In this document: one piece after another, positions 12,464-59,145 of the stretch
How the letters are laid out: each line of letters begins with the position of its first letter
Position numbering within the stretch: position 1 is the stretch's first letter
Source: Centroscyllium fabricii
Taxonomy: Eukaryota
Length of the DNA: 64,000 nucleotides
NCBI GenBank assembly: GCA_051313645.2
Contig: JBNRSN020000020.1
Span: forward strand, 75,640,001 to 75,704,000
Direction of reading: 5' to 3'
Notes under the pieces: generated by a model
What the model saw: the letters and a program-made list of their open reading frames with translations, nothing else
What the model was told of the DNA's origin: nothing
Databases searched by the model: none
Position numbers and translations under genes: made by a program

Positions 12464-15400
12464 CGTGGTAAACCACTCTTTATGTATATATCTGTATATT
12501 ACTGTAACCCACTGTAACCACCCTTAAACCATGTTGTATTATAGTTCTCTGTGTGTGATCACCTGGACATGCCCATGCTGGCCCCGCCTGTGACTCCTCC
12601 CTCCCAGGACCAGGTACATAAGCGGCCGTCTCCCATCCCCGGCCATTCCTGGGGATGGTCGACTAGCTGGTGCATGTCCACATTTAGCTAATAAAAGCCT
12701 ATAGTTTTCACCTCTTAATAACTCGTCTCCGAGGTCGTTAATTCGGTAACAATTTTATTAGCTAAATTTGACGATGGAATCGATGCTCAAACCAGCAACG
12801 TTCGAGCTGGACCCCCGGACACCAGGCGCATCAAATATCTTTACGCACTGGTTCGACTGCTTTGATGCGTTCATCAAGGCAAACGCGGCGGTCGTCACGA
12901 CCGAGGAGGACAAACGGCGTCTCCTCAATGCCCGGGTGGGCCCTCAGGTATACTCCATGATCGTAGACGCATCATCGTACCAAGATGCAATCCGGATCCT
13001 CAAAGTGGAGTACAACCGGCCACCCAACATCGTCCACGCCAGACACCTCCTGGCTACCAGAAGACAGCAACCCAGTGAGTCCAGCGTGGAGTTCCTACGC
13101 GCGCTGAGAGTACTCTCCCGGGCCTGTAACTGCAGATCGCAGTCGGCCCAGGTCCACGTGGACAGCCTGATCAGGGACGCGTATGTGACTGGCCTCAGGT
13201 CGGACTATATTCGCCAAAGGCTATTAGAACAGAACGGCCTTGACCTGCAGGCGACAGCGGACCTGGGCAACGCGCTGGATGTGGCATCGCTGAATCTGTC
13301 ATCATATTCCGGCAACTATGCGGGCCCAGCCCCGACAGCTTGGACATCGCCGGCGCCGCGACCGGCGGAAGAGATGACTGCGGCCGCTCATTCTAAGACG
13401 GCCAAATGTTACTTCTGCGGGCAGTCTCAGCACCCGAGACGGAACTGCCCGGCAAAAGACGCGGCCTGCTCGAAATGCGGCAAGAAAGGACACTATGCCA
13501 AAGTCTGCAGAGCAACTGCAACGCTGCAATCGAAACCGGGCAGTGCCGCGTGTGGGCAATGGGGGCAGCCATCTTGGACACAGCCATCTTCAACACAGCC
13601 CACCGCGTGGCAGCAGACGCCATCTTGGTCTCAGCCACCCCCTCCGCAGTACACCACATGGCGGCAGCCATCTTGGGACCAGGCCCCAGACGACTTCTCA
13701 ACGGATCAAAACGACTCGACCGACCCGACACTGGCATCCATCACCTTGGATCAGAACAAGGCACAACCACTCAGCAGGTCGATGATGACGGTGGAAGTGA
13801 ACGGGCGGAGCATCGAGTGCTTCTTCGACAGCGGGAGTACGGCAAGTTTTGTCCACCCAGAAACGATAAGGCGCCTCTCCCTTAAGGTTACGCCGGCAAG
13901 CCAAAAGATCTCTATGGTATCAAAGTCGGAATCCGCGGACGTCTCCGGACGTTGCGCGGTGACTCTAACGGTACGGGGCGTGCACTTTAGCAATTTCAAA
14001 CTATTCGTGCTGCCGCAGCTCTGCACTCCATTATTACTGGGCCTGGACTTCCAGTGCCACCTCCAGAGCGTTACCATGGCATACGGTGGGCCCCTTCCCC
14101 CGCTCACGGTCTGCAACCAGCGCTCCTCGCAGCATCCTCAGCGCGCTACCTGTGGCCTCTCGACCCTTAAGGTCGCCCCTCCCTCGCTCTTTGCTAACCT
14201 CACCCCGGACTGCAAGCCCGTCGCCACCAAAAGTAGGCGCTACAGTACCGGGGACATGGACTTCATCAAGTCCGAGGTGAAGCGCCTCCTGAGGGAGGGG
14301 GTCATCGAGGCCAGTAACAGCCCTTGGAGGGCGCAGGTAGTGGTGGTGAAGACCGGAGCTAAGAACCGAATGGTAGTGGACTATAGCCAGACCATTAACC
14401 GGTTCACCCAGTTAGACGCGTACCCCCTTCCCCGGATAGCGGACATGGTAAATCAGATCGCGCAGTTTCGGGTCTTCTCAACTATAGATCTGAAGTCCGC
14501 ATATCACCAGCTTCCCATCCGTCCAGAGGACCGTCTCTATACGGTCTTCGAGGCCGACGGCTGCCTCTATCACTTCCTCAGGGTCCCGTTTGGCGTCACG
14601 AATGGTGTCTCGGTCTTCCAAAGGGAGATGGACCGAATGGTCGATCAGTACGGGCTGCAGGCCACCTTTCCGTATCTCGATAACATGACCATCTGCGGCC
14701 ACGACCTGCAGGACCATGACGCCAACCTCCAGAAATTTCTCCACACCGCCAAAACACTGAACCTGACATATAACACGGAAAAATGTGTGTTCAGGACCAC
14801 CCGCCTCACCATCCTCGGCAGTGTTGTGGAGAATGGGGTCATCGGTCCCGACCCGGACCGCATGCGCCCCCTCCTGGAGCTTCCCCTCCCCCACTCCCTC
14901 AAGGCCCTCAAAAGGTGCCTGGGGTTCTTCGCCTATTATGCCCAGTGGGTCCCCAACTATGCGGACAAAGCCCGCCCACTACTTAAATCGACCTCATTCC
15001 CCCTGTCAGCAGATGCCCGCGCGGCGTTCTGCGGCATTAAGGATGACATTGCAAAGGCAACGATGCACGCTGTGGATGAGTCCGTCCCGTTCCAGGTCGA
15101 GAGCGATGCATCGGACTTTGCCCTGGCCACCACCCTTAACCAGGCGGGCAGACCCGTGGCCTTCTTCTCACGTACCCTCCAGGGCCCCGAGACCCGCCAC
15201 TCTTCAGTCGAGAAGGAGGCCCAGGCCATTGTTGAAGCAGTGCGACACTGGAAGCACTACCTGGCCGGCAAACGATTTACCCTGCTGACTGACCAACGCT
15301 CAGTCGCTTTTATGTTCAACAACAAAGAGCGGGGTAAAATCAAGAACGACAAGATACTGAGGTGGAGAATTGAGCTCTCCGCTTTCAACTGTGATATCTT

Positions 15401-17122
15401 GTACTGGCCCGGGAAATTCAATGAGCCCCCAGATGCCCTATCATGCGGTACATGTGCCAGCGCACAAGTGGACCATCTCCAAACCCTGCACAACGACCTC
15501 TGCCACCCGGGGGTCACCAGGTTGGTCCACTTTGTTAAGTCCCGCAACCTCCCCTACTCCATCGAGGAGGTCAAGACCATGACCAGGAACTGCCAGGTCT
15601 GTGCGGAGTGCAAGCCGCACTTCTTTCGGCCAGACCGGGCGCACCTGATCAAGGCCACCTGCCCCTTTGAGCGACTCAGTGTCGATTTTAAAGGGCCCCT
15701 TCCCTCGTCAAACAGAAACGTGTACTTTCTGAATGTCATCGACGAGTACTCGCGTTTCCCCTTCGCCATCCCCTGCCCGGACATGACCTCTGCCACCGTC
15801 ATTAAGGCCCTCCACAGCATTTTCTCCCTGTTCGGCTACCCCAGCTACATTCATAGCGACCGGGGGGCCTCTTTCATGAGTGACGAGCTGCGTCAGTTCC
15901 TGCTAGCCAAAGGCATCACTACTAGCAGGACTACCAGCTACAACCCCCGGGGGAACGGACAGGTAGAGAGGGAGAACGCCACGGTCTGGAAGGCCATCCT
16001 GTTGGCCCTACGGTCTAAAGGCCTCACAGTCTCCCGCTGGCAGGACGTCCTCCCCGAAGCGCTCCACTCCATCCGGTCACTCCTTTGTACGGCCACTAAC
16101 ACCACCCCTCACGAGCGACTTTTTGCCTTCCCTAGGAAGTCGGCTTCCGGGACCTCGCTGCCGTCATGGCTATCATCCCCGGGACCAGTTCTACTCAGGA
16201 AGCACATGAGGGGCCACAAGTCAGACCCCCTGGTCGAACGGGTCCACCTCCTGCATGCCAATCCCCAGTACGCCTGGCGTACCCCGACGGGAGGGAGGAC
16301 ACAGTGTCCATCAAGGACCTGGCACCAGCGGGTGCCCCCGAGACCAGCCCTGCCCAACAGCCCGCGCCCCCGCGCCTGCCAGCCACCCCCCCCCCCCCCC
16401 CCGGGCCACCGGCACCAAGGTACGCCGCCCAGTACAAGACTCCAGCACCACAGTACGTCCACCCGGCACCTGTAGGCAGCACGGCATGGCCCCCGGCATG
16501 GCTCCACAGTGCACGCGCCCAAGAGTCAGACGACGAGGGGGAGAGCGCGCCGCCAACCGTCACCGCAAGGGCACCGACGAGGAACCGAACGCCCCCGCCG
16601 ATCTCGCTACGACCAACTCAACCGGCTATTTTACATCCACCGACACCACCACCAGCGGTGCGCCTGCCGATCTCACTATGACCAACTCAACCGGCTATCT
16701 TACGTCCACCGACACCACCACCAGCGGTGCGCCGATCAACCAGGCTAACCAGGCCACCCGAAAGACTGAACCTGTAATTTAAAAGAACTGTCGCATTCAC
16801 CCCACCGGACTTTCGTTTTAAAGAAGGGGTGAATGTGGTAAACCACTCTTTATGTATATATCTGTATATTATTGTAACCTACTGTAACCACCCTTAAACC
16901 ATGTTGTATTATAGTTCTTTGTGTGTGATCACCTGGACATGCCCATGCTGGCCCCACCTGTGACTCCTCCCTCCTAGGACCAGGTACATAAGCGGCCGTC
17001 ACCCTCTCCCCGGCCATTCCTGGGGACGGTCGACTAGCTGGTGCATGTCCACCTTTAGCTAATAAAAGCCTATAGTTTTCACCTCTTAATAACTCGTCTC
17101 CGAGGTCGTTAATTCGGTAACA
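12464..17122 (+). mobile_element. Full-length Gypsy/Ty3 LTR retrotransposon (element 1)
   Basis: LTRs at 12464-12751 and 16834-17122, 5-bp TSD CTTAC, PPT AAGAAGGGGTGAA, and PR-RT-RH-IN domain order. Confidence 0.97.
12774..16475 (+). CDS. Gag-Pol polyprotein (single ORF; a frameshift near 16272 moves the integrase tail to the frame ending at 16681)
   Basis: Two CCHC knuckles, protease FDSGS, RT IDLKSAYHQ and YLDN, RNase H SDAS...EKE, integrase HHCC plus D-D-E (VDFKGP, SDRG, GQVER). Confidence 0.92.
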   Translation: MESMLKPATFELDPRTPGASNIFTHWFDCFDAFIKANAAVVTTEEDKRRLLNARVGPQVYSMIVDASSYQDAIRILKVEYNRPPNIVHARHLLATRRQQPSESSVEFLRALRVLSRACNCRSQSAQVHVDSLIRDAYVTGLRSDYIRQRLLEQNGLDLQATADLGNALDVASLNLSSYSGNYAGPAPTAWTSPAPRPAEEMTAAAHSKTAKCYFCGQSQHPRRNCPAKDAACSKCGKKGHYAKVCRATATLQSKPGSAACGQWGQPSWTQPSSTQPTAWQQTPSWSQPPPPQYTTWRQPSWDQAPDDFSTDQNDSTDPTLASITLDQNKAQPLSRSMMTVEVNGRSIECFFDSGSTASFVHPETIRRLSLKVTPASQKISMVSKSESADVSGRCAVTLTVRGVHFSNFKLFVLPQLCTPLLLGLDFQCHLQSVTMAYGGPLPPLTVCNQRSSQHPQRATCGLSTLKVAPPSLFANLTPDCKPVATKSRRYSTGDMDFIKSEVKRLLREGVIEASNSPWRAQVVVVKTGAKNRMVVDYSQTINRFTQLDAYPLPRIADMVNQIAQFRVFSTIDLKSAYHQLPIRPEDRLYTVFEADGCLYHFLRVPFGVTNGVSVFQREMDRMVDQYGLQATFPYLDNMTICGHDLQDHDANLQKFLHTAKTLNLTYNTEKCVFRTTRLTILGSVVENGVIGPDPDRMRPLLELPLPHSLKALKRCLGFFAYYAQWVPNYADKARPLLKSTSFPLSADARAAFCGIKDDIAKATMHAVDESVPFQVESDASDFALATTLNQAGRPVAFFSRTLQGPETRHSSVEKEAQAIVEAVRHWKHYLAGKRFTLLTDQRSVAFMFNNKERGKIKNDKILRWRIELSAFNCDILYWPGKFNEPPDALSCGTCASAQVDHLQTLHNDLCHPGVTRLVHFVKSRNLPYSIEEVKTMTRNCQVCAECKPHFFRPDRAHLIKATCPFERLSVDFKGPLPSSNRNVYFLNVIDEYSRFPFAIPCPDMTSATVIKALHSIFSLFGYPSYIHSDRGASFMSDELRQFLLAKGITTSRTTSYNPRGNGQVERENATVWKAILLALRSKGLTVSRWQDVLPEALHSIRSLLCTATNTTPHERLFAFPRKSASGTSLPSWLSSPGPVLLRKHMRGHKSDPLVERVHLLHANPQYAWRTPTGGRTQCPSRTWHQRVPPRPALPNSPRPRACQPPPPPPPGHRHQGTPPSTRLQHHSTSTRHL

Positions 17123-22446: not shown

Positions 22447-22899
22447 TACAGGTTCCTGCAGTGCTATGTGAAAGTGTGCCGCCCTACTCTTCCAACTCTA
22501 GCCTCCTTTGCCTCCCCTCCATCTCCACTCTAACTGAACTGTTTTTTTCTCCCAATTTCATCTTTGTTACAAATCCCATTTAACTCCCACAACCCCCTGT
22601 AGCGTAGTCGCTAGCTCAATTAAAAGGTGACAAGTAAGTACCGAAATACAAGGCTTTTAATTGCTAAAGAATGGAGCTACTCTCCTCCACGAGTTACAAT
22701 ACAGGAATGAATGAACTTGGGTCAGACCACACCAATACCGGGGCCTCACCTGGGGGAGGAGTCGGGGGTGTGGCTGACCTGGTTCTCGGCAGTGTCATAA
22801 CAAACAGGGCTGTGCCTAACAGTTGCACAGCCCATTATTAGCAGTGGTTATACAGTGGTAATATAGTGGTAATATAATGGTTACCACATTCACCCCTTC

Positions 22900-25261
22900 T
22901 TAAAAACTTTGAGTCTGGGGGGGGGGTGAATGGATGGAACAGTTCATAATGAGTCTGTCTGGCGGTCGTGTCTTTCTGGCGGACCGCTGGAGCTCCGGTG
23001 TTGGTGGTGATGCCTCCACGGTCGAATAGCCCGCATCTGTCGGCGCTGTGGCTTCTGGACGTGGTGGGCTTGGCTGGGCCTCGGCGTCTGGGGCGTAGTC
23101 AGGGAAACTCGGGGTCCATCTGTCAGTTGGTTGGTCATCCTGCTGGCCAGCAGGAGGCGCTGTGGTGGTGTTTCCGGCCGGGGCCAGGTCCCTGATGGAC
23201 ACGGTGTCCTCACGCCCGTCTGGGAACTGCACAAAGGTGTAGTGCAGGTTGGCGTGTAGGAGCTGTACCTTGTCCACCAGGGGGTCCGTCTTGTGGTTCC
23301 GGACGTGCCTTTTAAGGAAAACCGGCCCCGGAGTCGTCAGCCATGGGGGGAGTGCCGTCCCCGAAGTCGACTTCCTGTTAAAGGAAAAAATAAGATCGTG
23401 CGGGGTGGCGTTAGTAGCAGTACATAACAGTGATCGGATAGAGTGCAGCGCATCTGGGAGGACTGCCTGCCAATGGGACACTGAAAGGTCTCTGGACTTG
23501 AGAGCCAGGGTGACCGCCTTCCAAATGATCCCATTCTCCCTTTCTACCTGGCCGTTCCCCCGGGGGTTATAACTGGTCGTTCTGCTCGTGGCAACCCCTT
23601 TCTGGAGCAGAAACTGGCGCAGTTCATCGCTCATGAACGACGACCCCCGGTCGCTATGGATGTAGCTGGGGAGACCGAAAATGGTGAACAGCGTGGTGAA
23701 GTGTTTTATCACCGTGGCGCTCATCATATCTGGGCAGGGGAAGGCGAAGGGGAAGCGGGAGAACTCATCCACTACCGTGAGGAAGTATGAGTTGCGGTCG
23801 GTGGAAGGAAGGGGGCCTTTGAAGTCTACGCTGAGACGTGCAAAGGGGCGGGTGGCCTTGATGAGGCGCGCCGTGTCTGGCCGGAAAAAGTGGGGTTTGC
23901 ACTCGGCACAGACAGGGCACCCTTGGGTCATAGCCTTGATCTCCGTGATGGAGTAGGGGAGGCTACGGGATTTGACGAAATGGGCGAGTCTGGTGACACC
24001 CGGGTGGCAAAGGCGGTCGTGGAGGTCCTTCAGCCGGTCGAGCTGGGCACTGGCGCACGTTCCCCTGGACAGTGCGTCCGGGGGTTCGTTGAGTTTGCCT
24101 GGTCGGTAAAGAATGTCATACTCGTAAGTCGAGAGTTCGATCCGCCACTGCAGGATCTTATCATTCTTGATTTTACCCCGTAGTTTATTATTAAACATAA
24201 ACGCTACCGACCGTTGGTCGGTGAGCAGGGTAAAACGCTTACCGGCCAGGTAATGACGCCAGTAGCGCACGGCCTCCACAATGGCCTGGGCCTCCTTTTC
24301 CACTGCTGAGTGGCGAGTTTCGGGTCCCTGTAAGGTGCGGGAGAAAAACGCTACGGGCCTGCCTGCCTGATTCAGGGTGGCGGCAAGGGCAAAGACCGAA
24401 GCGTCGCTCTCCACCTGGAAGGGGATGGATTCATCAACAGCGAGCATGGTCGCCTTGATAATATCTTCCTTTATCCTTGCGAATGCCTTTTGGGCTTCTA
24501 CCGAAAGGGGGAAGACGGCAGCCTTGAGGAGTGGTCTAGCCTTATCTGCAAACTGTGGGACCCATTGTGCATAATAGGAGAAAAATCCTAGGCATCTCCT
24601 CAAGGCTTTGGGATTGTGAGGTAGGGGCAGTTCTAGCAGGGGTCGCATACGCTGTGGGTCGGGGCCGAGGAGCCCGTTCTCCACCACGTATCCGAGGATG
24701 GCGAGCCGGTCTGTATTAAAGACACATTTGTCTTTGTTATACGTAAGGTCCAGCTTAGCCGCCGTGTCGAGGAATTTGGCCAGATTGGCATCGTGGTCCT
24801 GCTGGTCGTGGCTGCAGATGGTCACGTTGTCCAGGTAGGGGAAAGTGGCCTGCAAGTCATTCTGGTCAATCATGCGGTCCATCTCCCATTGGAACACGGA
24901 CACTCCATTGGTCACGCCAAAGGGGACCCGGAGGAAGTGGTAGAGCCGACCGTTCGCCTCGAAGGCGGTGTAGGGGCGGTCAGCTTTCCGAATCGGGAGC
25001 TGGTGATACGCCGATTTAAGGTCGATTGTGGAGAAAACCTTGTACTGGGCGATCTGGTTGACCATTTCCGAGATGCGGGGAAGGGGGTAGGCGTCGAGCC
25101 CGGTGTAGCGGTTGATAGTCTGGCTGTAGTCGATAACCAGCCGCTGTTTCTCCCCAGACTTCACCACTACAACTTGGGCGCGCCAGGGGCTGGTGCTGGC
25201 TTCAATAATCCCCTCCTTCAGCATCCGCCCGACCTCCGACCTGATAAACGTGCGGTCCCCC
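22900..25261 (-). CDS. Element A pol, RT-RNase H-integrase part (separated from gag-PR by element B)
   Basis: IDLKSAYHQ, YLDN, ESDAS, HHCC and DDE motifs. Rejoins 'RRYSEG|DRTFIRSEV' across the insertion. Confidence 0.9.
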
Positions 25262-25543
25262 TGTAGTGAACCCAATTAAAGAGGCTACGAGTTTGTACCG
25301 AACAATAAGGCTTTTAATTACTAAATAATGGAGCTACACTCCAGGCAACAATCATAACAGAACTGGGTGGAGCCCCGGTCAGACCACACCTATATAGAGC
25401 CCCACAAGGGGAGGAGTCGGGGGTGTGGCTGATCTGGCTCCCAACAAGATCACAGTAAAACAGGGCTGTGCCTAACATCAGCACAGCCCACAATCAATCC
25501 CGGCAACACAGCAGTGGGATACAGTACAATACGATTACCACAT

Positions 25544-28500
25544 TCACCCCTTGTTAAAAACTTTGAGTCCAGGGGGGGGCGAATGGATGGAACAGTTCAT
25601 AATCAACCATTCCGGCGGTCGTCTCTTCCTGGAGGACTGTCGGCGCACCAGTGTAGAAGGTGATGCCTCCCTGGTGGAATGGTCCGCCTCTGCCGGCACT
25701 GTGACTTCCGGTGGCGGAGTGCTCGTTGGATCGCAGTCAGGGGAACTCGGGGGCAATCCTGTGTCTGGTGGGTGAACAACTTGGTGGCCGGCGGGGGGTG
25801 CTGTCGTGGTGTTTCCGGCCGGGGCCAGGTCCCTGATGGACACGGTGTCCTCACGCCCGTCTGGGAACTGCACGAAGGCGTAGTGCGGGTTGGCGTGAAG
25901 TAGCTGTACCTTGTCCACCAGGGGGTCCGTTTTGTGGCTCCGGACGTGCCTCCTAAGCAAAACCGGCCCTGGAGTCGTCAGCCATGGGGGAAGGGCTGTT
26001 CCAGAAGTGGACCTCCTGTGGAAGGAAAAAACGAGATCATGCGGAGTGGCGTTAGTAGCTGTACACAACAGTGACCGGATAGCGTGCAGCGCATCTGGGA
26101 GGACTGCCTGCCAATGGGATACTGGACGGCCTCTGGACTTGAGAGCCAGGGTGACCGCCTTCCAAATGATCCCATTCTCCCTTTCTACCTGGCCGTTCCC
26201 CCGGGGGTTATAACTGGTCGTTCTGCTCGTGGCAACCCCTCTCTGGAGCAGATACTGGCGCAGTTCATCGCTCATGAACGATGACCCCCGGTCGCTATGG
26301 ATGTAGCCGGGGAGACCGAAAATGGCGAACAGCGTGGTGAAGTGTTTGATCACCGTTGCGCTCGTCATATCTGGGCAGGGGAAAGCGAAGGGGAAGCGGG
26401 AGAACTCATCCACTACCGTGAGGAAGTATGAGTTGCGGTCGGTGGAGGGAAGGGGGCCTTTGAAATCAACGCTGAGACGTTCAAAGGGGCGGGTGGCCTT
26501 GATGAGGTGCGCCGTGTCTGGCCGGAAAAAGTGTGGTTTGCACTCAGCACAGACAGGGCACTCTCGGGTTATATCCTTTATCTCCGTGATGGAGTAGGGG
26601 AGACTACGAGATTTAACGAAGTGGGCGAGTCTGGTGACACCCGGGTGGCAAAGGCGATCGTGGAGATCCTTCAGCCGGTCTAGCTGGGCACTGGCGCACG
26701 TTCCCCTGGACAGTGCGTCCGGGGGTTCATTGAGTTTACCTGGTCGGTAAAGAATGTCATACTCGTAAGTCGAGAGTTCGATCCGCCACCGCATGATCTT
26801 ATCATTCTTGATCTTACCCCGTAGTTTATTATTAAACATAAACGCCACCGACCGTTGGTCAGTGAGCAGGGTAAAACGCTTACCGGCCAGGTAATGACGC
26901 CAGTAGCGCACGGCCTCCACGATGGCCTGGGCCTCCTTTTCCACTGCGGAGTGGCGAGTTTCGGGTCCCTGTAAGGTGCGGGAGAAAAACGCTACGGGCC
27001 TGCCTGCCTGATTCAGGGTGGCAGCAAGGGCAAAGTCCGAAGCGTCACTCTCCACCTGGAAAGGGATGGATTCATCAACAGCGAGCATGGTCGCCTTGGC
27101 GATGTCTTCCTTAATCCTTGCAAAAGCTGTCTGTGCTTCTGCAGAAAGGGGGAAGGCGACAGCCTTGAGGAGTGGTCTAGCCTTATCTGCGAACTGTGGG
27201 ACCCATTGTGCATAATAGGAGAAAAATCCTAGACATCTCCTCAAGGCTTTGGGGTTGTGAGGTAGGGGCAGTTCTTGCAGGGGTCGCATACGCTGTGGGT
27301 CGGGGCCGAGGACCCCGTTCTCCACCACGTATCCGAGAATGGCGAGCCGGGCTGTATTAAAGACACATTTGTCTTTGTTATACGTGAGGTCCAGTTTAGC
27401 CGCCGTGTCGAGGAATTTGGCCAGATTGGCATCGTGGTCCTGCTGGTCGTGGCCGCAGATGGTCACGTTGTCCAGGTAAGGGAAGGTGGCCTGCAAGTCA
27501 TGGTGATCAACCATACGGTCCATCTCCCGTTGGAACACGGACACTCCATTGGTCACGCCAAAGGGGACCCGGAGGAAATGGTAGAGCCGACCGTTCGCCT
27601 CGAAGGCGGTGTAGGGGCGGTCGGCTTTCCTGATCGGGAGCTGGTGATACGCCGATTTAAGGTCGATCGTAGAGAACACCTTATACTGGGCGATCTGATT
27701 GACCATTTCCGAGATGCGGGGGAGGGGGTAGGCGTCGAGCCCGGTGTAGCGGTTGATAGTCTGGCTGTAATCGATAACCAGCCGCTGTTTCTCGCCAGAC
27801 TTCACCACCACAACTTGGGCGCGCCAGGGGCTGGTGCTGGCTTCAATTATCCCCTCCTTCAGCATACGCCCGACCTCCGACCTGATAAACGTGCGATCCC
27901 CCTCACTGTACCGCCGACTCTTAGTGGCAATGGGCTTGCACTTCGGATCGAGGTTGGCGAACAGCGAGGGGGAGTCGATTCTCAGGGTGGAGAGGCCGCA
28001 GGCCGGGCTCCGCTTTGGGGTGGAATTGTCCCGGCTACTGACGGTGAGGGAGGGTAAGGTCCCGCCGAACTCCACTGTCACACTCTGGAAGTGGCACTGG
28101 AAATCCAAGCCTAGCAAGGCTGGGGCACACAACTGTCGGAGGGTATACAATTTAAAATTATGGTACACGCGTCCCTTGACGGTGAGCGTGACGGAGCAGT
28201 AGCCGGTAACGTCCGCGGTGTGGGACTGTGAAGCTAGGGAGATTTGGTAGTTAGTGGGCAGGATCTGCAGTCCACAGCGCCGTACGGTATCCGGGTGGAC
28301 GAAACTCTCCGTGCTGCCTGTGTCAAAAAGACAGTCAACATTAAAGTTATTAATTTTTACCGGAATAATCGAGTTGGACAGGGTATGAGGCCTGTCCTGG
28401 TTAACTGTAATTTTGGCTGCAGCAGCCCCTGCTGGCCGGGGCTGTGCACAAGATGATTTTTCCTGAAAACAAAATGGCGCCGTCCCTGCCCCGCACTGTG

Positions 28501-29998
28501 AGGGGCACTGGACCGGAAATAGCATCGCCCCTGCCCCGCACTGTGAGGGGCACTGGACCGGAAATAGCGTCGCCCCTGCCCCGCGCTGTGAGGAGCACTG
28601 GACCGGAAATAGCGTCGCCCCTGCCCCGCACTGTGAGGGGCACTGGACCGGAAATAGCGTCGCCCCTGCCCCGCACTGTGAGGGGCACTGGACCGGAAAT
28701 AGCATCGCCCCTGCCCCGCGCTGTGAGGAGCACTGGACCGGAAATAGCGTCGCCCCTGCCCCGCACTGTGAGGGGCACTGGACCGGAAATAGCGGCGCCC
28801 CTGCTCCGCGCTGTGAGGGGAAACCCCGTACATCAAATGGCGCCATTTCTGACTGTGAGGGGAAACCCCGTACATCGGATGGCTTTGTCTCTGCACCGCA
28901 TGTGGTCGGGCCTCTGGTGCTAAGAGATGTCTCTGGCCCGCCCGTGGAGGGACTCTGGCCCTGTGAACGCGCTGGCGGCGCCCGTGGTTCGCACGCAGCG
29001 GACCGCGGTGATCGGGTTGGCGGTGCCCGTGGTTCGCACGCAGCCGGCCGCGTTGAGGGGTCACGCTTGGCCGGCCTTCTCTGCATCAGGTAAGAAGGGG
29101 TGGGGGGTGGGGGCGCTCGTTGTCTACCCCCGTACCGTCGCTGAATCGCGCTGCCAATGCATCTTACCTGGTCGGTGCTCTCACAGGCTGCACTTTTATA
29201 CCTTCGGTTAGGCGCTGGTGGAGATGTTGTTGGACCTGACTTACAGGCTTTAGCGAAGTGCCCCTTCTTTAAGCATTTGATACAGGTCGCTGTCCTGGCT
29301 GGGCATTTCGCTCTCGGGTGCAGTCCTTGGCCGCAGAAGTAGCAGTGCTAGGCTCTAGTGTCTTTAGTGGCCGTCGCGGCCATCGTGGGGCTCTCGGCCC
29401 GTGGCGCCCAGGCTTGGGCCTGTTGTGGCGCGGCCCATACACTGTAGGCTTGCGGGTTTGTGCCGCCATACGCCTGTAGTTTATTATGGGCCCCCTCTAC
29501 CGATCTGGCTAACATGGTCGCCTCCTCGAGGGTCAAATTATCTCTTTCCAGCAGCCTCTGACGGGCCTCTACGCATCGCAGTCCCGTAACATAAGCGTCC
29601 CGAACGAGGAGTTCTTCCTCCTGCGCAATAGTTGTGCCTTTGCAGCCACAGGCCCGCACCAGGGCCAGGAGCGCTTGCTCAAACTCCTCGTTTGACTCAC
29701 CCGGTAGCTGGGATCGGGTCGCTAGCACATGTCGGACGAAGACGGAATGGACCGGGCGCTCGTAGCATTTCTTGAGGATCGCTACGGTGTCCACATAGGT
29801 TGAAGCGTTCATGACGAGGGTGAAAACCCTGCTGGAGATCCTTGATCTCAGGACCTGTAGCTTGTCCCCGTCCGTAGTAGCCTTGGCAGCTGCTGTATAG
29901 GCCTGTAGTAGGCCGAACCAGTGTATGAAGGTAGCCGGTGCAGCGGCATCCTGGGGACTAATGTCCAGCTTCTCAGGCTTCACCGTGCTGCTATCCAT
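25544..29998 (-). CDS. Element B Gag-Pol, one reading frame with a single in-frame TAG at 29348-29350
   Basis: Gag 29998-29348. The frame continues HCYFCGQG...CIKCLKKGHFAKAC into the 1180-aa ORF with FDTGS, YLDN, RH and IN. Confidence 0.9.
28470..28880 (-). repeat. In-frame 42-bp tandem repeat (about 8 full copies plus degenerate ones)
   Basis: Encodes (GAGATLFPVQCPSQC)-like 14-aa units between the zinc knuckles and the protease. Confidence 0.9.
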
Positions 29999-30299
29999 TT
30001 TAAACTAGTAATTAAAATTGTAGTGAACCCAATTAAAGAGGCTACGAGTTTGTACCGAACAATAAGGCTTTTAATTACTAAATAATGGAGCTACACTCCA
30101 GGCAACAATCATAACAGAACTGGGTGGAGCCCCGGTCAGACCACACCTATATAGAGCCCCACAAGGGGAGGAGTCGGGGGTGTGGCTGATCTGGCTCCCA
30201 ACAAGATCACAGTAAAACAGGGCTGTGCCTAACATCAGCACAGCCCACAATCAATCCCGGCAACACAGCAGTGGGATACAGTACAATACGATTACCACA

Positions 30300-32268
30300 C
30301 CCCCTCACTGTATCGCCGACTCTTAGTGGCGATAGGTTTGCACTTTGGGTCGAGGTTGGCGAACAGCGAGGGGGGATCGATTTTCAGGGTGGAGAGGCCG
30401 CAGGCCGGGGTCCGCTTCGGGGGGAGATTGTCCCGGCTACTGAGGGTGAGGGGGGGTAAGGTCCCACCGAACTCCATTGTCACGCTCCTGAAGTGGCACT
30501 GGAAATCCAAGCCTAGTAAGGCTGGGGCACACAACTGTTTGAGGGTATACAACTTAAAGTTATGGTACACGCGTCCCTGGACGGTGAGCGTGACGGAGCA
30601 GTAGCCGGTGACGTCCGCGGTGTGGGACTGTGAAGCTAGGGACACTTGGTAGTTGGTGGGCAGGACCTGCAGTCCGCAGCGCCGCACTGTATCAGGGTGA
30701 ATAAAGCTCTCGGTACTGCCCGTGTCAAGAAGGCAGTCGACAGTATGGCTATTAATAGCGATCGATATTATTGAATTAGACAGGTGATGGGGCCTGCTTT
30801 GACTAACTCTGGTTCTGGCTGCAGCAGTCCCTGCTGATAGGGACTGTGCACAAAATGGCGGCGCCCCTGGCTCGCACATGGAGGGGCCCTGGATGCAAGA
30901 TGGCGTCACCCCTGGCCCGCAGCTGGTGGGACCCCGTATACAAAATGGCGCCGCCCCTGGCTCGCAGATGGAGGGGCCCTGGATGCAAGATGGCGTCGCC
31001 CCTGGCCCGCAGCTGATGGGACCCCGTATACAAAATGGCGCCGCCCCTGGCTCGCACATGGAGGGGTCTAGGTTGTGGAGCGGCGTTTCTGAGGGGCCCT
31101 GACGCACTGGCGGCGCCCGTGATTCGCACGCAGCGAACCGCGGTGAACTCACTGGCGGTACGTTGTGGAGCGGCGTTTCTGAGGGGCCCTGACGCACTGG
31201 TGGCGCCCGTGATTCGCACGCAGCGAACCGCGGTGAACGCGCTGGCGGCGCCCGTGATTTGCACGCAGCGAACCGCGGTGAACGCGCTGGCGGCGCCCGT
31301 GATTCGCACGCAGCGAACCGCGGTGGTCTGGTTGGCGGTGCCCGTGATTCGCACGCAGCCGGCCGCGTTGTAGGGTCGCGCTTGGCCGGTCGCCGCTGCA
31401 TCGGGATGCGGGAAGGGGGGGCTTGCCGTCGCTGGATTGCACTGCAATTGTAGCTTACCTGCTGGTTGCTCTCACAGGCTGCACTGTTGTACCTTTTTGG
31501 AACTGCTGCTGGAGCCGATCTGCAGGCCTTGGCAAAGTGTCCTTTCTTAGCGCATTTTTCGCAGGTCGCAATCCTGGCCGGGCATTTTGCTCTGGGATGC
31601 AATCCTTGGCCGCAGAAGTAACAATGTTTGTGTTTAGTGTCCGTGGTGGCCGTCGCGGCCATCGTGGGGCTCTCGGTCCGTGACGCCTATTGTGGCGCGG
31701 CCCATACATTGTAGACTTGTTGATTTGTGCCACCGTATGTCTGTGATTTGTTACGGGCCCCTTCCACCGATTTAGCTAACATGGTTGCCTCCTCAAGGGT
31801 CAGGTTATCCTTCTCCAGTAACCTCTGACGGGCTACTCCGCATCTTAGTCCAGAAACATAAGCGTCCCTGAGGAGGAGGTCTTCCTCCTGTGCAACAGTC
31901 AATCCGCCCTTGCAGCCACAGGCCCGCACCAGGCCCCGGAGCGCTTGCTCGAACTCATCGTTCGACTCACTGGGTAGCTGAGATCGGGTCGCTACTATGT
32001 GTTGAGCGTAGACGGAATGGACCGGGCGCTCATAGCACTTCTTGAGGGTCGCCACAGTTTCCTCGTAGGTTGTAAGATCCTGGACAAGGGTGAAGACCCT
32101 GCTGGAGATCCTGGATCTCAGGACTTGTAGTTTGTCCTCGTCCTTAGTAGCCTTGGCGGCTGCTGTATAGACCTGTAGTAGGCCGAACCAGTGCTTGAAG
32201 GTAGCTGGTGCCGCGGCATCCTGGGGGCTAACGTCCAGCTCCCTAGGCTTTACCGAGTTGCTCTCCAT
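30300..32268 (-). CDS. Element A gag-protease part with an in-frame TAG at 31687-31689
   Basis: MESNSVKP...WAAPQ*ASRTESPTMAAT...CYFC...LDTGS. Tandem repeats at about 30850-31370. Confidence 0.85.
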
Positions 32269-33049
32269 TTTTAAGTTTAGCAATTAAAATTGTAGCGTAG
32301 TCGCTAGCTCAATTAAAAGGCGACAAGTAAGTACCGAAATACAAGGCTTTTAATTGCTAAAGAATGGAGCTACTCTCCTCCACGAGTTACAGTACAGGAA
32401 TGAATGAACTTGGGTCAGACCACACCTATACCGGGGCCTCACCTGGGGGAGGAGTCGGGGGTGTGGCTGACCTGGTTCTCGGCAGTGTCATAACAAACAG
32501 GGCTGTGCCTAACAGTTGCACAGCCCATTATTAGCAGTGGTTATACAGTGGTAATATAGTGGTAATATAATGGTTACCACACCCCCCACACCCACAACTA
32601 AATTCCATCACAAATGGTACAATGGGCAAAAAAAATGTTGGGGGGAGAAGTGCATGATTTTGTTTAATTGTACAAAAAATCAACCACTGCATTATTGGTT
32701 AAAATGCACAGCTGGCATTAGTTTCAAAATTCAAATTTCAAAATGTCCTCGCCAATATCAAATGTCCTGGCCAATATTTATCCCTCAATCAATACCATTT
32801 AAAAAAACCCAGATCATCTAGTCATTATCACAATGCTATTTGTGGGAGCTTGCTGTGCGCAAATTGGCTGCCGCATTTCCCAAATTACAACAATGACTAC
32901 ACTTCAAAAGTAGTTAATTGACTGTAAAGCACTTTAGGACATCCCGAGGCCGTGAAAGGCGCTATATAAATGCAAGTCTTTCTTTCTTTACCTCTGGTCA
33001 CAGAATCTTCATTCCTCTTAATCTCGGTGGGACCTCAAATATTTTTAGT

Positions 33050-48461: not shown

Positions 48462-50103
48462 GGGATCGAATTTATCAATGGGGATGTGATGGAGGCGAAA
48501 CACCCACATTTTGGGTTGTAGTCCCGCCTTCATCGACTTGTGCCCAACCCACTTTATTTTCCCTTGATTGACCTTGTTAAGCCCGCCCAGTGGGCTCAGC
48601 AGGCCAATTAAGGGTCACCTGGTTACTGGCAACATCAGCGATTGACATTTCATCTGTCAAGAGCTTTTGACAGATGAAAAATCAACATTTGACAGCTCTG
48701 CGAAGCTGTCAAACACTTACAATCTGTCTGCTAACTTGAGTCCTTCTACTCAGACTCAGTTAGAGAGCTCTCCAGACCAGAAAGCAGAATGCTGCAGCTT
48801 TTGACAGTTCAGTGGCCATTTTGCTTTCTGTGCCGGTGAGCTGAGGGACTCCCAAGAACTGAAGGAAGGAAGCCTGCAGGAGAAAGTAAAGGTAAGTAAA
48901 ACTTAGAAAAACACTTTACACTTACCTCACACACTTACCTCGGCACGCATGCACCCATCACTCACTTGCACAACGGACATGTCGACCCCTCCAACCCCTT
49001 CAGACTGACGATCCACATCGCTAACTTGGCGTGGGTCGGCGCCGTCGGGAAGCCCACACTTCAGGGCTAAAAATAGGTACAGGTTGTGCACCATTAATCC
49101 GTTACCCGATAAGCCGGCAGCTTCAGTCTTCCGGAAAAAATTGTCCCGACTGCCCTGTGCATGCACAAATTTGCCGCCACGATTAATGCTTCAGTGAATG
49201 ATCTGCGCATGCGCCGCCGAATGGCGAGCGCATGCACAGATCATTTACAATGGGCGCCGCAAAGTTTTTAATGAGCTGCGCATGCGCTGCCGAACGATCC
49301 CGAGCCGGGCCTTCCCGAGCCTCGCCTTACCGAGCCGAGGCTTAGCGAGCGTTCCTGAGCCGGGCCTCGCCTTACCAAACCGGGGCCTCCCGAGCCGGGC
49401 CTTACAGAGTCTTCCCGAGCCGGGCCGGGGCTTCCCGAGCCGGGCCTCGCCTCGCCTCACTGAGCCTTCCCGAGCCGGGCGGGGGCTTCCCGAGCCGGGC
49501 CTCACCTCGCCTCACTGAGCCTTCCCGAGCCGGGCCGGGGCTTCCCGAGCCGGGCCTCGCCTCGCCTCACTGAGCCTTCCCGAGCCGGGCGGGGGCTTCC
49601 CGAGCTGGTGCTTCCCGAGCTGGGCCAAGGCTTCCTGAGCCAGGCCTCACCTCGACTTACCGAGCCGGGCCGGGGCTTCCTGAGATGGCCCTCGCCTTAC
49701 CGAGCCAGGCCATACCGAACGATAAACGCTTGCACAGACCACTCAAAATGGCCGCTGACCTTTCGCGGCCACCACTTTGAATGGTCTGCGCATGCGCTCG
49801 CCGAAGCTTCAATCATTCGGGATTTTCCCGGCACGGGCCTGGTCCCACCCATGCCGGATTAACAGTGCTCAACCTGTATTAGGCAAAAAACTGCCTGTTA
49901 ACTACCTGTTAACAGGCAGTTAATTGGCACTAATCCCCTTCCCGCCTCGGGGAGGCGGCTCCCAGCTCAGGTCGGGTATCCGCCTCCTGGGACATTGGCA
50001 CGGAGGCAGGTTGGGGCGGGATGGGTTACTGCTCCCCGATTCTGCAATTTTCCAGCACACCCGCCTCCAAACCCATTTCCTCGGGGCTTGGAAATTCAAG
50101 CCC
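48462..50103. mobile_element. Harbinger-like MITE containing a nested Tc1/mariner-like MITE (49080-49876)
   Basis: Outer TIRs GGGATCGAATTT / AAATTCAAGCCC. Inner TIRs CAGGTTG..CAC / GTG..CAACCTG with a TA TSD and an expanded CCCGAGCCGGGC repeat at about 49280-49710. Confidence 0.7.
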
Positions 50104-57904: not shown

Positions 57905-59145
57905 GTTGTAATTTTTTGAGGATGTAACTGGTAAAATAGATAAGGGAGAACCAGTGGATGTGGTGTATTTGGACTTTCAAAAGGCTTTCGATAAGGTCCC
58001 ACATAAGAGATTAGCGTGTAAAGTTAAAGCACATGGGATTGGGGGCAAGGTATTGACTTGGAGAGAGAACTGGTTGGCAGACAGAAAGCAAAGCGTTGGA
58101 ATAAACGACTCTTTTTCCGAGTGGCAGGCAGTGGCTAATGGGGTACCGCAGGGATCAGTGCTAGGACCCCAGCTATTCACAACATATATTAATGATTTGG
58201 ACGAGGGAACTAGATGTAATATCTCCAAGTTTGCAGATGACACAAAGCTGGGTGGGCATGTGTGCTGTGAGGAGGATGACAAGAAACTCCAGTATGATTT
58301 GGACAGGTTGGGTGATTGGGCAGAAGCAGGGCAGATGCAATATAATGAGGATAAATGCGAGGTTATCCACTTTGGTGTCAAAAACAAGATGGCAGATTAT
58401 TATCTGAATGGCAATAGATTGGGAGAAGGGGAAGTGCAATGAGACCTAGGCGTCCTTGTGCACCAGTCGCTGAAGGTAAGCATGCAGGCACAGCAGGTGG
58501 TTAAGAAGGCAAATGGTATGTTGGCCTTCATAGCGAGAGGGTTTGAGTTCAGGAACAAGGATGTCTTGCTGCAGTTGTGCAGGGCGTTTGTGAGACCACA
58601 CCTTGAATATTGTGTGCAGTTTTGGTCGCTTTATCTAAGGAAAGAGTACAGCGAAGATTCACCAGGCTGATACCTGGGATGGCAGGAATGACGTATGAGG
58701 AGAGATTGGGCCGATTGGGCTTGTACTCGCTGGAGTTTAGAAGAATGAGAGGGGATCTCATTGAAACTTATAAAATTCTAACAGGACTGGACAGACTAGA
58801 TGCAGGAAGGATGTTCCCGATGGTGGAAGAGCCCTGAATCAGGGGTCACAGTCTAAGGATAAGGGGTAAGCCATTTAGGACAGAGATGAGGAGGAATCTC
58901 TTCACCCAGAGAGTGGTGAATCTGTGGAATTCTCTACCACAGAAGGCCGTAGAGGTCAATTCATTAAATATATTCAAGAAGGAGTTGGATATATTTCTTA
59001 AGGCTAATGGTATCAAGGGATACGGGGAGAAGGCAGGTACGGGGTACTGAATTTGGATGATCAGCCATGATCACATTGAATGGCGGAGAAGGCTCAAGCG
59101 GCCGAATGGCCTACTCCTGCTCCTATCTTCTATGTTTCTATGTTT
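57905..59145 (+). mobile_element. CR1 (HER1-like) LINE, 5'-truncated RT remnant
   Basis: 'YLDFQKAFDKVPH', 'GVPQGSVLGP', 'KFADDTK' and 'RPHLEYCVQFW'. Its 3' tail is shared with the SINEs. Confidence 0.9.

Follow-up and report, generated by a model that had tools for sequence, protein, structure and literature searches.

Asparagine at the last position of the YxDD motif of reverse transcriptase (RT) is known both from engineered enzymes and from natural lineages. Ty1 D211N can still polymerise in vitro, at a kpol that is 223-fold lower and with a preference for Mn, but cannot transpose, as the first-pass annotation of this locus had stated; RNase H suppressors restore its transposition to 5-10% (PMC2148107). 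Ty3 D214N remains active but is less processive, and the mutation is lethal in vivo; D151N and D213N are polymerase dead, and the Ty3 RT is an asymmetric dimer in which the polymerase site of one subunit is occluded (PMC5371799). Among natural cases, Cer7-Cer12 of C. elegans carry YVDN, for which retained activity with Asn was said to remain "to be determined" (PMC554778), and YVDN distinguishes nematode belpaoviruses, including the intact Atlas virus with identical LTRs (PMC9094657). Bacterial G2L5 RTs have changed DD to DN (PMC2602772), and the RdRps (RNA-dependent RNA polymerases) of Mononegavirales (GDN) and birnaviruses naturally carry Asn at the same motif C position, a slower Asn polymerase having been suggested to favour birnavirus spread (PMC4634563). 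Given these natural YVDN and DN motifs and the in vitro polymerisation of the Ty1 and Ty3 mutants, the description of the second Asp as nearly invariant was overstated. No report of YxDN in Ty3/Gypsy elements was found in the open-access literature. The Asp-to-Asn swap is known from another LTR superfamily; here it represents the usual condition, and not damage, in a broad lineage of animal Gypsy elements.

The window, that is, the whole 64,000-nucleotide stretch of Centroscyllium fabricii DNA analysed here, contains three Gypsy LTR retrotransposons, elements 1, A and B (Table 1), each with a 5-bp TSD, a PPT before the 3' LTR and LTRs ending in TG...CA. The two LTRs differ at about 10 positions in 290 nt in element 1 and at 3/291 in element A, and those of element B are identical (0/281), as first described. 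Element 1 has a single gag-pol frame (12762-16475), the C-terminal end of which diverges from that of B. All three copies carry lesions. Since B is nested in the pol of A, and since in-frame stops interrupt gag in both (codon 194 in A; codon 217, at 29348-29350, in B), neither A nor B is itself intact. The TSD GGGGG occurs at both A and the nested B (for B, at 25257-25261/30300-30304), and varied TSDs are found in 19 other B copies with paired LTRs. In-frame 45-nt tandem repeats, encoding 15-residue Cys/Gln/Pro-rich units, lie between the Gag knuckles and the protease in B (28427-28910) and A (30853-31405) and do not occur in element 1. The N-terminus of B Gag (29351-30004) gave a Pfam saccharopine dehydrogenase match of 25.8 bits against a cut-off of 25.1, which is probably spurious. 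Elsewhere in the window are a LINE-type FADD motif (58230-58241) and a short-period tandem array with a spacing of 5-20 nt (49264-49708), and the remainder is full of SINE/LINE-like dispersed repeats (D2-D14).

Table 1. Elements, primer-site positions and RT motifs in the window, with the loci of the YLDD family found elsewhere in the genome
Feature	Position	Strand	Details
Element 1, Gypsy LTR retrotransposon	12464-17122	+	LTRs 12464-12751 and 16834-17122; TSD CTTAC (5 bp)
Element A, whose pol holds the nested element B	22598-32581	-	LTRs 32291-32581 and 22598-22888; TSD GGGGG
Element B	25262-30299	-	LTRs 30019-30299 and 25262-25542; TSD GGGGG
Element 1 primer-site position	12753-12767	+	15 nt complementary to LTR 12682-12696, holding AATAAA
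Element A primer-site position	32276-32289	-	14 nt complementary to LTR 32348-32361
Element B primer-site position	30006-30017	-	12 nt complementary to LTR 30069-30080
Element 1 RT motif A Asp (first catalytic Asp), intact	14487-14489	+	
Element B RT motif A Asp (D562 of P0002)	27662-27664	-	candidate permissive Thr560 two codons upstream
Element 1 RT motif C, YLDN	14673-14684	+	TAT CTC GAT AAC; Asp 14679-14681, Asn 14682-14684
Element A RT motif C, YLDN	24826-24837	-	TAC CTG GAC AAC
Element B RT motif C, YLDN	27467-27478	-	TAC CTG GAC AAC; Asn627 of P0002 at 27467-27469
YLDD family loci, this genome	L168, L179, L182-L185, L187, L189, L191-L200		

The Pol domains of element 1 and B follow the order protease-RT-RNase H-integrase (Pfam), as expected of Ty3/Gypsy (Metaviridae), and their translations contain two Gag knuckles and the D(35)E integrase spacing. 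The RT is closest to Ty3/Gypsy, the best PDB match being Ty3 RT (E 1e-49) and the nearest outgroup rows carrying the Gypsy-type DYRxLN/NAP; Ty3 RT is also the best fold match of an AlphaFold model of the B RT-RNase H (pLDDT 86.7). No env was detected in these elements, and none of the 6 proteins scanned matched a chromodomain family (Pfam). A canonical YxDD and a tRNA primer site, which are typical but not defining traits of Ty3/Gypsy, are absent here. A double zinc knuckle is present in element 1; together with an RT phylogeny that includes named Mag, SURL and Cigr references, it would bear on membership of the Mag clade of Ty3/Gypsy. The name "Selgy", considered for the clade, was dropped because it was found only in plant-classification papers, and passages of PMC2774666, PMC3601003 and PMC13524379 do not name the clade.

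These elements share with nematode BEL/Pao (Belpaoviridae) a natural Asp-to-Asn change at the last YxDD position of an LTR retrotransposon, the nematode set including an intact element with identical LTRs. However, BEL/Pao elements have a triple Cys-His Gag box and an integrase D-E spacing of 45-53 (PMC554778), and they differ further from the present lineage, which has a Ty3-like RT, extends over many groups of animals, toggles between D and N, and reaches >200,000 sites in a single genome. Fold and motif register are those of Ty3 RT (PDB 4ol8) and Ty1, enzymes that still polymerise in vitro with this Asp-to-Asn change; Ty3 D214N and Ty1 D211N are engineered and transposition-dead, whereas the present family, in which palm and fingers are remodelled, has Asn at fixation and has been expanding recently. 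G2L5 RTs likewise have a clade-wide DN at motif C, but they are bacterial and non-mobile and, in their authors' view, have lost polymerase activity (PMC2602772), whereas the present family shows evidence of recent replication. The Mononegavirales and birnavirus enzymes are also right-hand polymerases with Asn at the motif C position; however, they are not RTs, and Asn is reported to be essential in Mononegavirales, whereas D and N interchange here (PMC4634563).

Codon reading confirmed that all three elements have YLDN at the RT active site. Each motif is in frame within the RVT_1 domain of the Gag-Pol ORF (Pfam) and stands column-for-column opposite the YLDD of Ty3 RT in the alignment to PDB 4ol8/7q5b, and the motif A Asp is kept in elements 1, A and B. 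The codons flanking YLDN differ synonymously among the elements, as had been claimed. In the longer motif recorded as FPYLDN(M/V), the Met, found in element 1, probably arose from a Val codon through CpG decay and is probably not a lineage variant.

Asn also predominates across the genome. In the 7.2-Gb assembly, an exact 10-codon pattern, the counts of which are lower bounds, matched YLDN at 221,056 sites in many synonymous contexts, against 0 for the reversed-pattern control, which excludes a chance match. The same pattern with Asp matched only 298 sites, and two control A-to-G mutants of the motif gave 475 (YLDS) and 855 (YLGN, without an essential Asp), so that in-family YLDD is no commoner than dead point mutants. 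Among the first 30 of the 298 YLDD loci, the reading frame is broken by a stop inside the 3-kb locus in 29, and no two are closer than 97% identity; no amplified D sub-lineage is therefore seen. Because the GAC-GAC junction is a CpG, D mutants would tend to revert to N, a caveat that applies in both directions. Scored matches to the B RT were 99-100% identical in 150/150 cases. A comparison of the YLDD copies with their nearest N and nearest D relatives was rejected as a test, the N set being almost wholly of the B family. Unlike the matches of the other patterns, those to YLDD favour one strand (171 forward, 127 reverse), which may reflect local duplication.

Both LTRs were detected in 19 of 20 sisters of B, differing at 0-4 of 265-293 nt, and each of these 19 has a distinct TSD and the Asn codon AAC. 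In 13 of the 20, which were picked as the best RT matches and are skewed to young copies, the frame that crosses the motif is free of stops over at least 1400 codons. Between B and element 1, dN/dS is 0.073 for RT (dS ~1.9), 0.126 for integrase and 0.02 for RNase H, where synonymous sites are close to saturation, and it is 0.098 for RT between B and A. Purifying selection acts on both RT and RNase H. The check proposed in the first-pass annotation, on fixation of N and dN/dS across the family, thus gave predominant Asn (221,056 vs 298) and an RT under such selection, and two of its inferences are borne out: Asn is a lineage trait and not decay, given the genomic YLDN sites, the sisters with near-identical LTRs and the low dN/dS; and the lineage has transposed recently and on a huge scale with a two-aspartate RT. 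Judged from these sequences, YLDN is the normal, selected state of a very large, recently active Gypsy family and of a good part of a clade found across animals.

The trait extends well beyond this shark. The nearest named homologues (75-82% identity) are from rays and catsharks, and the best 120 homologues together with the three window proteins comprise 96 YxDN and 27 YxDD. Named N carriers include rays, catsharks, the sea anemone Actinostola and the ascidian Styela, and named D carriers include Trichuris, Ischnura and Cyamophila. After addition of 150 representatives from a 50% library, the rows that covered the motif and reached 40% identity, taken as in-clade, numbered 230, with N in 151, D in 78 and Y in 1 at the third position, and YxDD was found in 41/41 outgroup rows (<40% identity); 16/272 rows, poorly covered or in other states, were excluded. 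The restriction to D or N indicates that the third site is constrained and not free. N members retain the motif A Asp in 148/151 rows, the first motif C Asp in 149/151 and the motif D Lys in 137/~142; their RT and RNase H catalytic residues, including the four RNase H carboxylates, are as conserved as those of D members, and the primer-grip Gly is conserved, as in active RTs. All 15 rows of the shark/ray branch have N.

In a FastTree phylogeny computed with the trait column removed, rooted mapping placed D at the base of the monophyletic clade (support 100), with N marking a 182-row subclade (support 93). Parsimony gave 2-6 D>N gains and 20-24 N>D reversions, on a tree with many weakly supported inner nodes and with rows collected by means of an N query. 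An early origin of N followed by some 20-24 reversions is probable. The excess of reversions over gains could mean, with the N-query sample in mind, that N carries a slight cost except in hosts that are large and prone to drift.

Relative to other Gypsy RTs, the whole clade shows SPWRAQ, DYSxT(I/V)N for DYRxLN, NGV for NAP, and Gly at +5. This remodelling lies around the template and dNTP sites and is common to D and N members; within residues 509-531 and 599-602 of P0002 a conserved Arg is lost, one residue is inserted and NGV replaces NAP. Thr629 (Asn+2) and Thr/Ser560 (motif A Asp -2) occur together in 122/137 N rows vs 30/76 D rows, and Thr629 is present in no outgroup row. By equivalence to HIV-1 RT V108 and Y188, both positions would lie on that face of the palm sheet which carries the third carboxylate, and the two threonines are good candidates for compensation, but they share a single origin with N. 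The compensatory residues envisaged in the first-pass annotation are putative: no column among those listed followed N/D in 7 supported independent pairs, an underpowered comparison with significance out of reach, and 8 close N/D pairs showed no recurrent co-change save weak Ile/Val swaps at positions 749 and 846 (3/8). Fisher tests of columns against N/D are inflated by relatedness.

We consider it very probable that the YLDN enzyme is a competent RT with two essential carboxylates, in which the third position would need only a carbonyl, set in a permissive background. An autonomous Ty3/Gypsy element would thus use YLDN as a functional active site, its RT being able to catalyse in cis. The metal-binding pair essential in Ty1 and Ty3, made up of the motif A Asp and the first Asp of motif C, is kept, and the side-chain carbonyl of Asn, although uncharged, may still help to position metal A or the primer end. 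Against this reading stand the excess of reversions to D, the presence of a same-clade YLDD family in the genome, and the yeast mutants: the same swap stops Ty1 and Ty3 transposition and slows Ty1 kpol strongly, so that competence with Asn would need a permissive background. The remodelled palm and fingers, probably with the two threonines beside the site, would make both D and N viable. N probably appeared early in one large subclade and reverted many times, and it is fixed in the shark/ray branch.

The alternative that fares best, although we regard it as improbable, is that Asn is adaptive: a polymerase slowed, or retuned in its handling of metal or pyrophosphate, would suit RNase H-dependent self-priming or spare the host, and D would be selected against. 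In all three elements, 12-15 nt starting one base past the 5' LTR pair with the poly(A)-signal segment of the LTR, the primer position beginning with ATTT. Leader folding gave an LTR/primer-site helix in element A (z -1.8) and element 1 (z -3.5) and none in B (z -1.2). Among 80 metagenome loci, of which 25 are without upstream cover and 2 have a broken motif, the signature occurs in 28/38 covered N loci vs 4-5/15 covered D loci, but many share assemblies, several D loci are decayed, and shuffle controls reach 6-11 nt. Complementarity ranges over 11-19 nt across the clade (window and loci L062-L136), with matched changes between families.

Tf1/sushi elements of Ty3/Gypsy self-prime, their primer site pairing with the element's own sequence and not with a tRNA. 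The present elements resemble them in that the primer site pairs with the element's own LTR over 12-15 nt in the right geometry, although self-priming is putative here; unlike the Tf1/sushi chromoviruses, they have no chromodomain among the proteins scanned, and the paired segment holds the poly(A) signal. Tf1 is not known to carry YxDN. The LTR-pairing primer site is a candidate self-priming signature across the clade.

An adaptive role would accord with the restriction of N to this putatively self-priming clade (the outgroup rows are 41/41 DD), with the lack of any amplified D sub-lineage among 221,056 N sites and with the 15/15 N rows of sharks and rays. The partial rescue of Ty1 D211N by RNase H suppressors (PMC2148107) and the suggested benefit of a slower Asn polymerase to birnavirus spread (PMC4634563) point the same way. 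However, YLDD members have the same LTR-pairing primer site (4-5/15 metagenome loci and 2/10 copies of an in-genome YLDD family), so the signature is a clade trait that does not require Asn, and the one-to-one link between Asn and unusual priming proposed earlier does not hold; a weaker association may exist, several D loci being decayed. In addition, some 20-24 N>D reversions were fixed elsewhere, and methylation-driven mutation of the CpG at GAC-GAC would alone bias D towards N in a vertebrate.

Less probable still is trans-mobilisation, in which the YLDN RT would be polymerase-dead, a YxDD helper would copy the RNAs, and the RT would be kept for a structural or RNase H role. A broader YxDD pattern, with 485 genome matches, revealed a second, YLDD family of the same clade, with a DYSQTIN motif, about 57% amino-acid identity to B, 134 motif sites and the same priming signature, and the asymmetric Ty3 RT dimer with one occluded polymerase site (PMC5371799) also speaks for such a model. 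The first-pass annotation had named intact YLDD relatives, able to mobilise these copies in trans, as a finding that would refute its own inference; a same-clade relative does exist, but the sampled copies are neither intact nor young. The N family outnumbers this one about 1,650-fold, the copies of the YLDD family are 88-95% identical to each other (8 loci), and 10/10 sampled larger regions are broken, with LTR pairs in 3/10 that are 95-97% identical, against 0-4 differences in N copies, indicating that it is the older family. The YLDD family is thus an unlikely helper for the N copies, in a search that covered YxDD sites of the clade. Nor does a helper emerge within the N family, where YLDD (298) is rarer than the control mutants (475 and 855) and 29/30 sampled loci have stops. 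A dead polymerase would, moreover, not hold the Asp of motif A, the first Asp of motif C and the motif D Lys almost constant, or a third site confined to D or N. Having the same LTR-pairing primer site, the YLDD family offers an in-genome control for the N family.

Decay of dead copies from D to N, whether through deamination at a CpG or through a faulty assembly, can be set aside, for although deamination of GAC GAC gives GAC AAC and all three window copies are lesioned, element 1 has GAT AAC with no CpG route, the 221,056 N sites show a variety of synonymous contexts, N occurs in copies whose LTRs are identical and in cartilaginous fish, a cnidarian and an ascidian, and only 4 among the 100 sites listed (of 134) in the old YLDD family have decayed to N.

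A bolder form of the competent-RT reading, which we put forward only tentatively and think rather doubtful, holds that the remodelled site, with the DYR Arg lost, the NGV loop and the flanking threonines, may form a fully efficient Mg-dependent two-carboxylate RT, that Asn may be preferred in the shark/ray branch, and that this enzyme may have built a large share of the genome, which would be ~1 Gb of 7 Gb if each of the 221,056 sites marked a 5-kb element. If this is true, natural N/D pairs of 75-87% identity would define the role of the third carboxylate in all RTs.

The >200,000 YLDN sites, near-identical LTRs and purifying selection provide strong natural evidence that Asn can replace the last Asp of the motif. 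Because the clade has switched so often between D and N in nature and offers close pairs at 75-87% identity, among them P0027/P0055 and P0102/P0118 at 81-87%, what the third carboxylate does can be tested without engineered enzymes. Annotation rules that score an RT as dead when it does not have YxDD would misclassify one of the largest repeat families of this genome.
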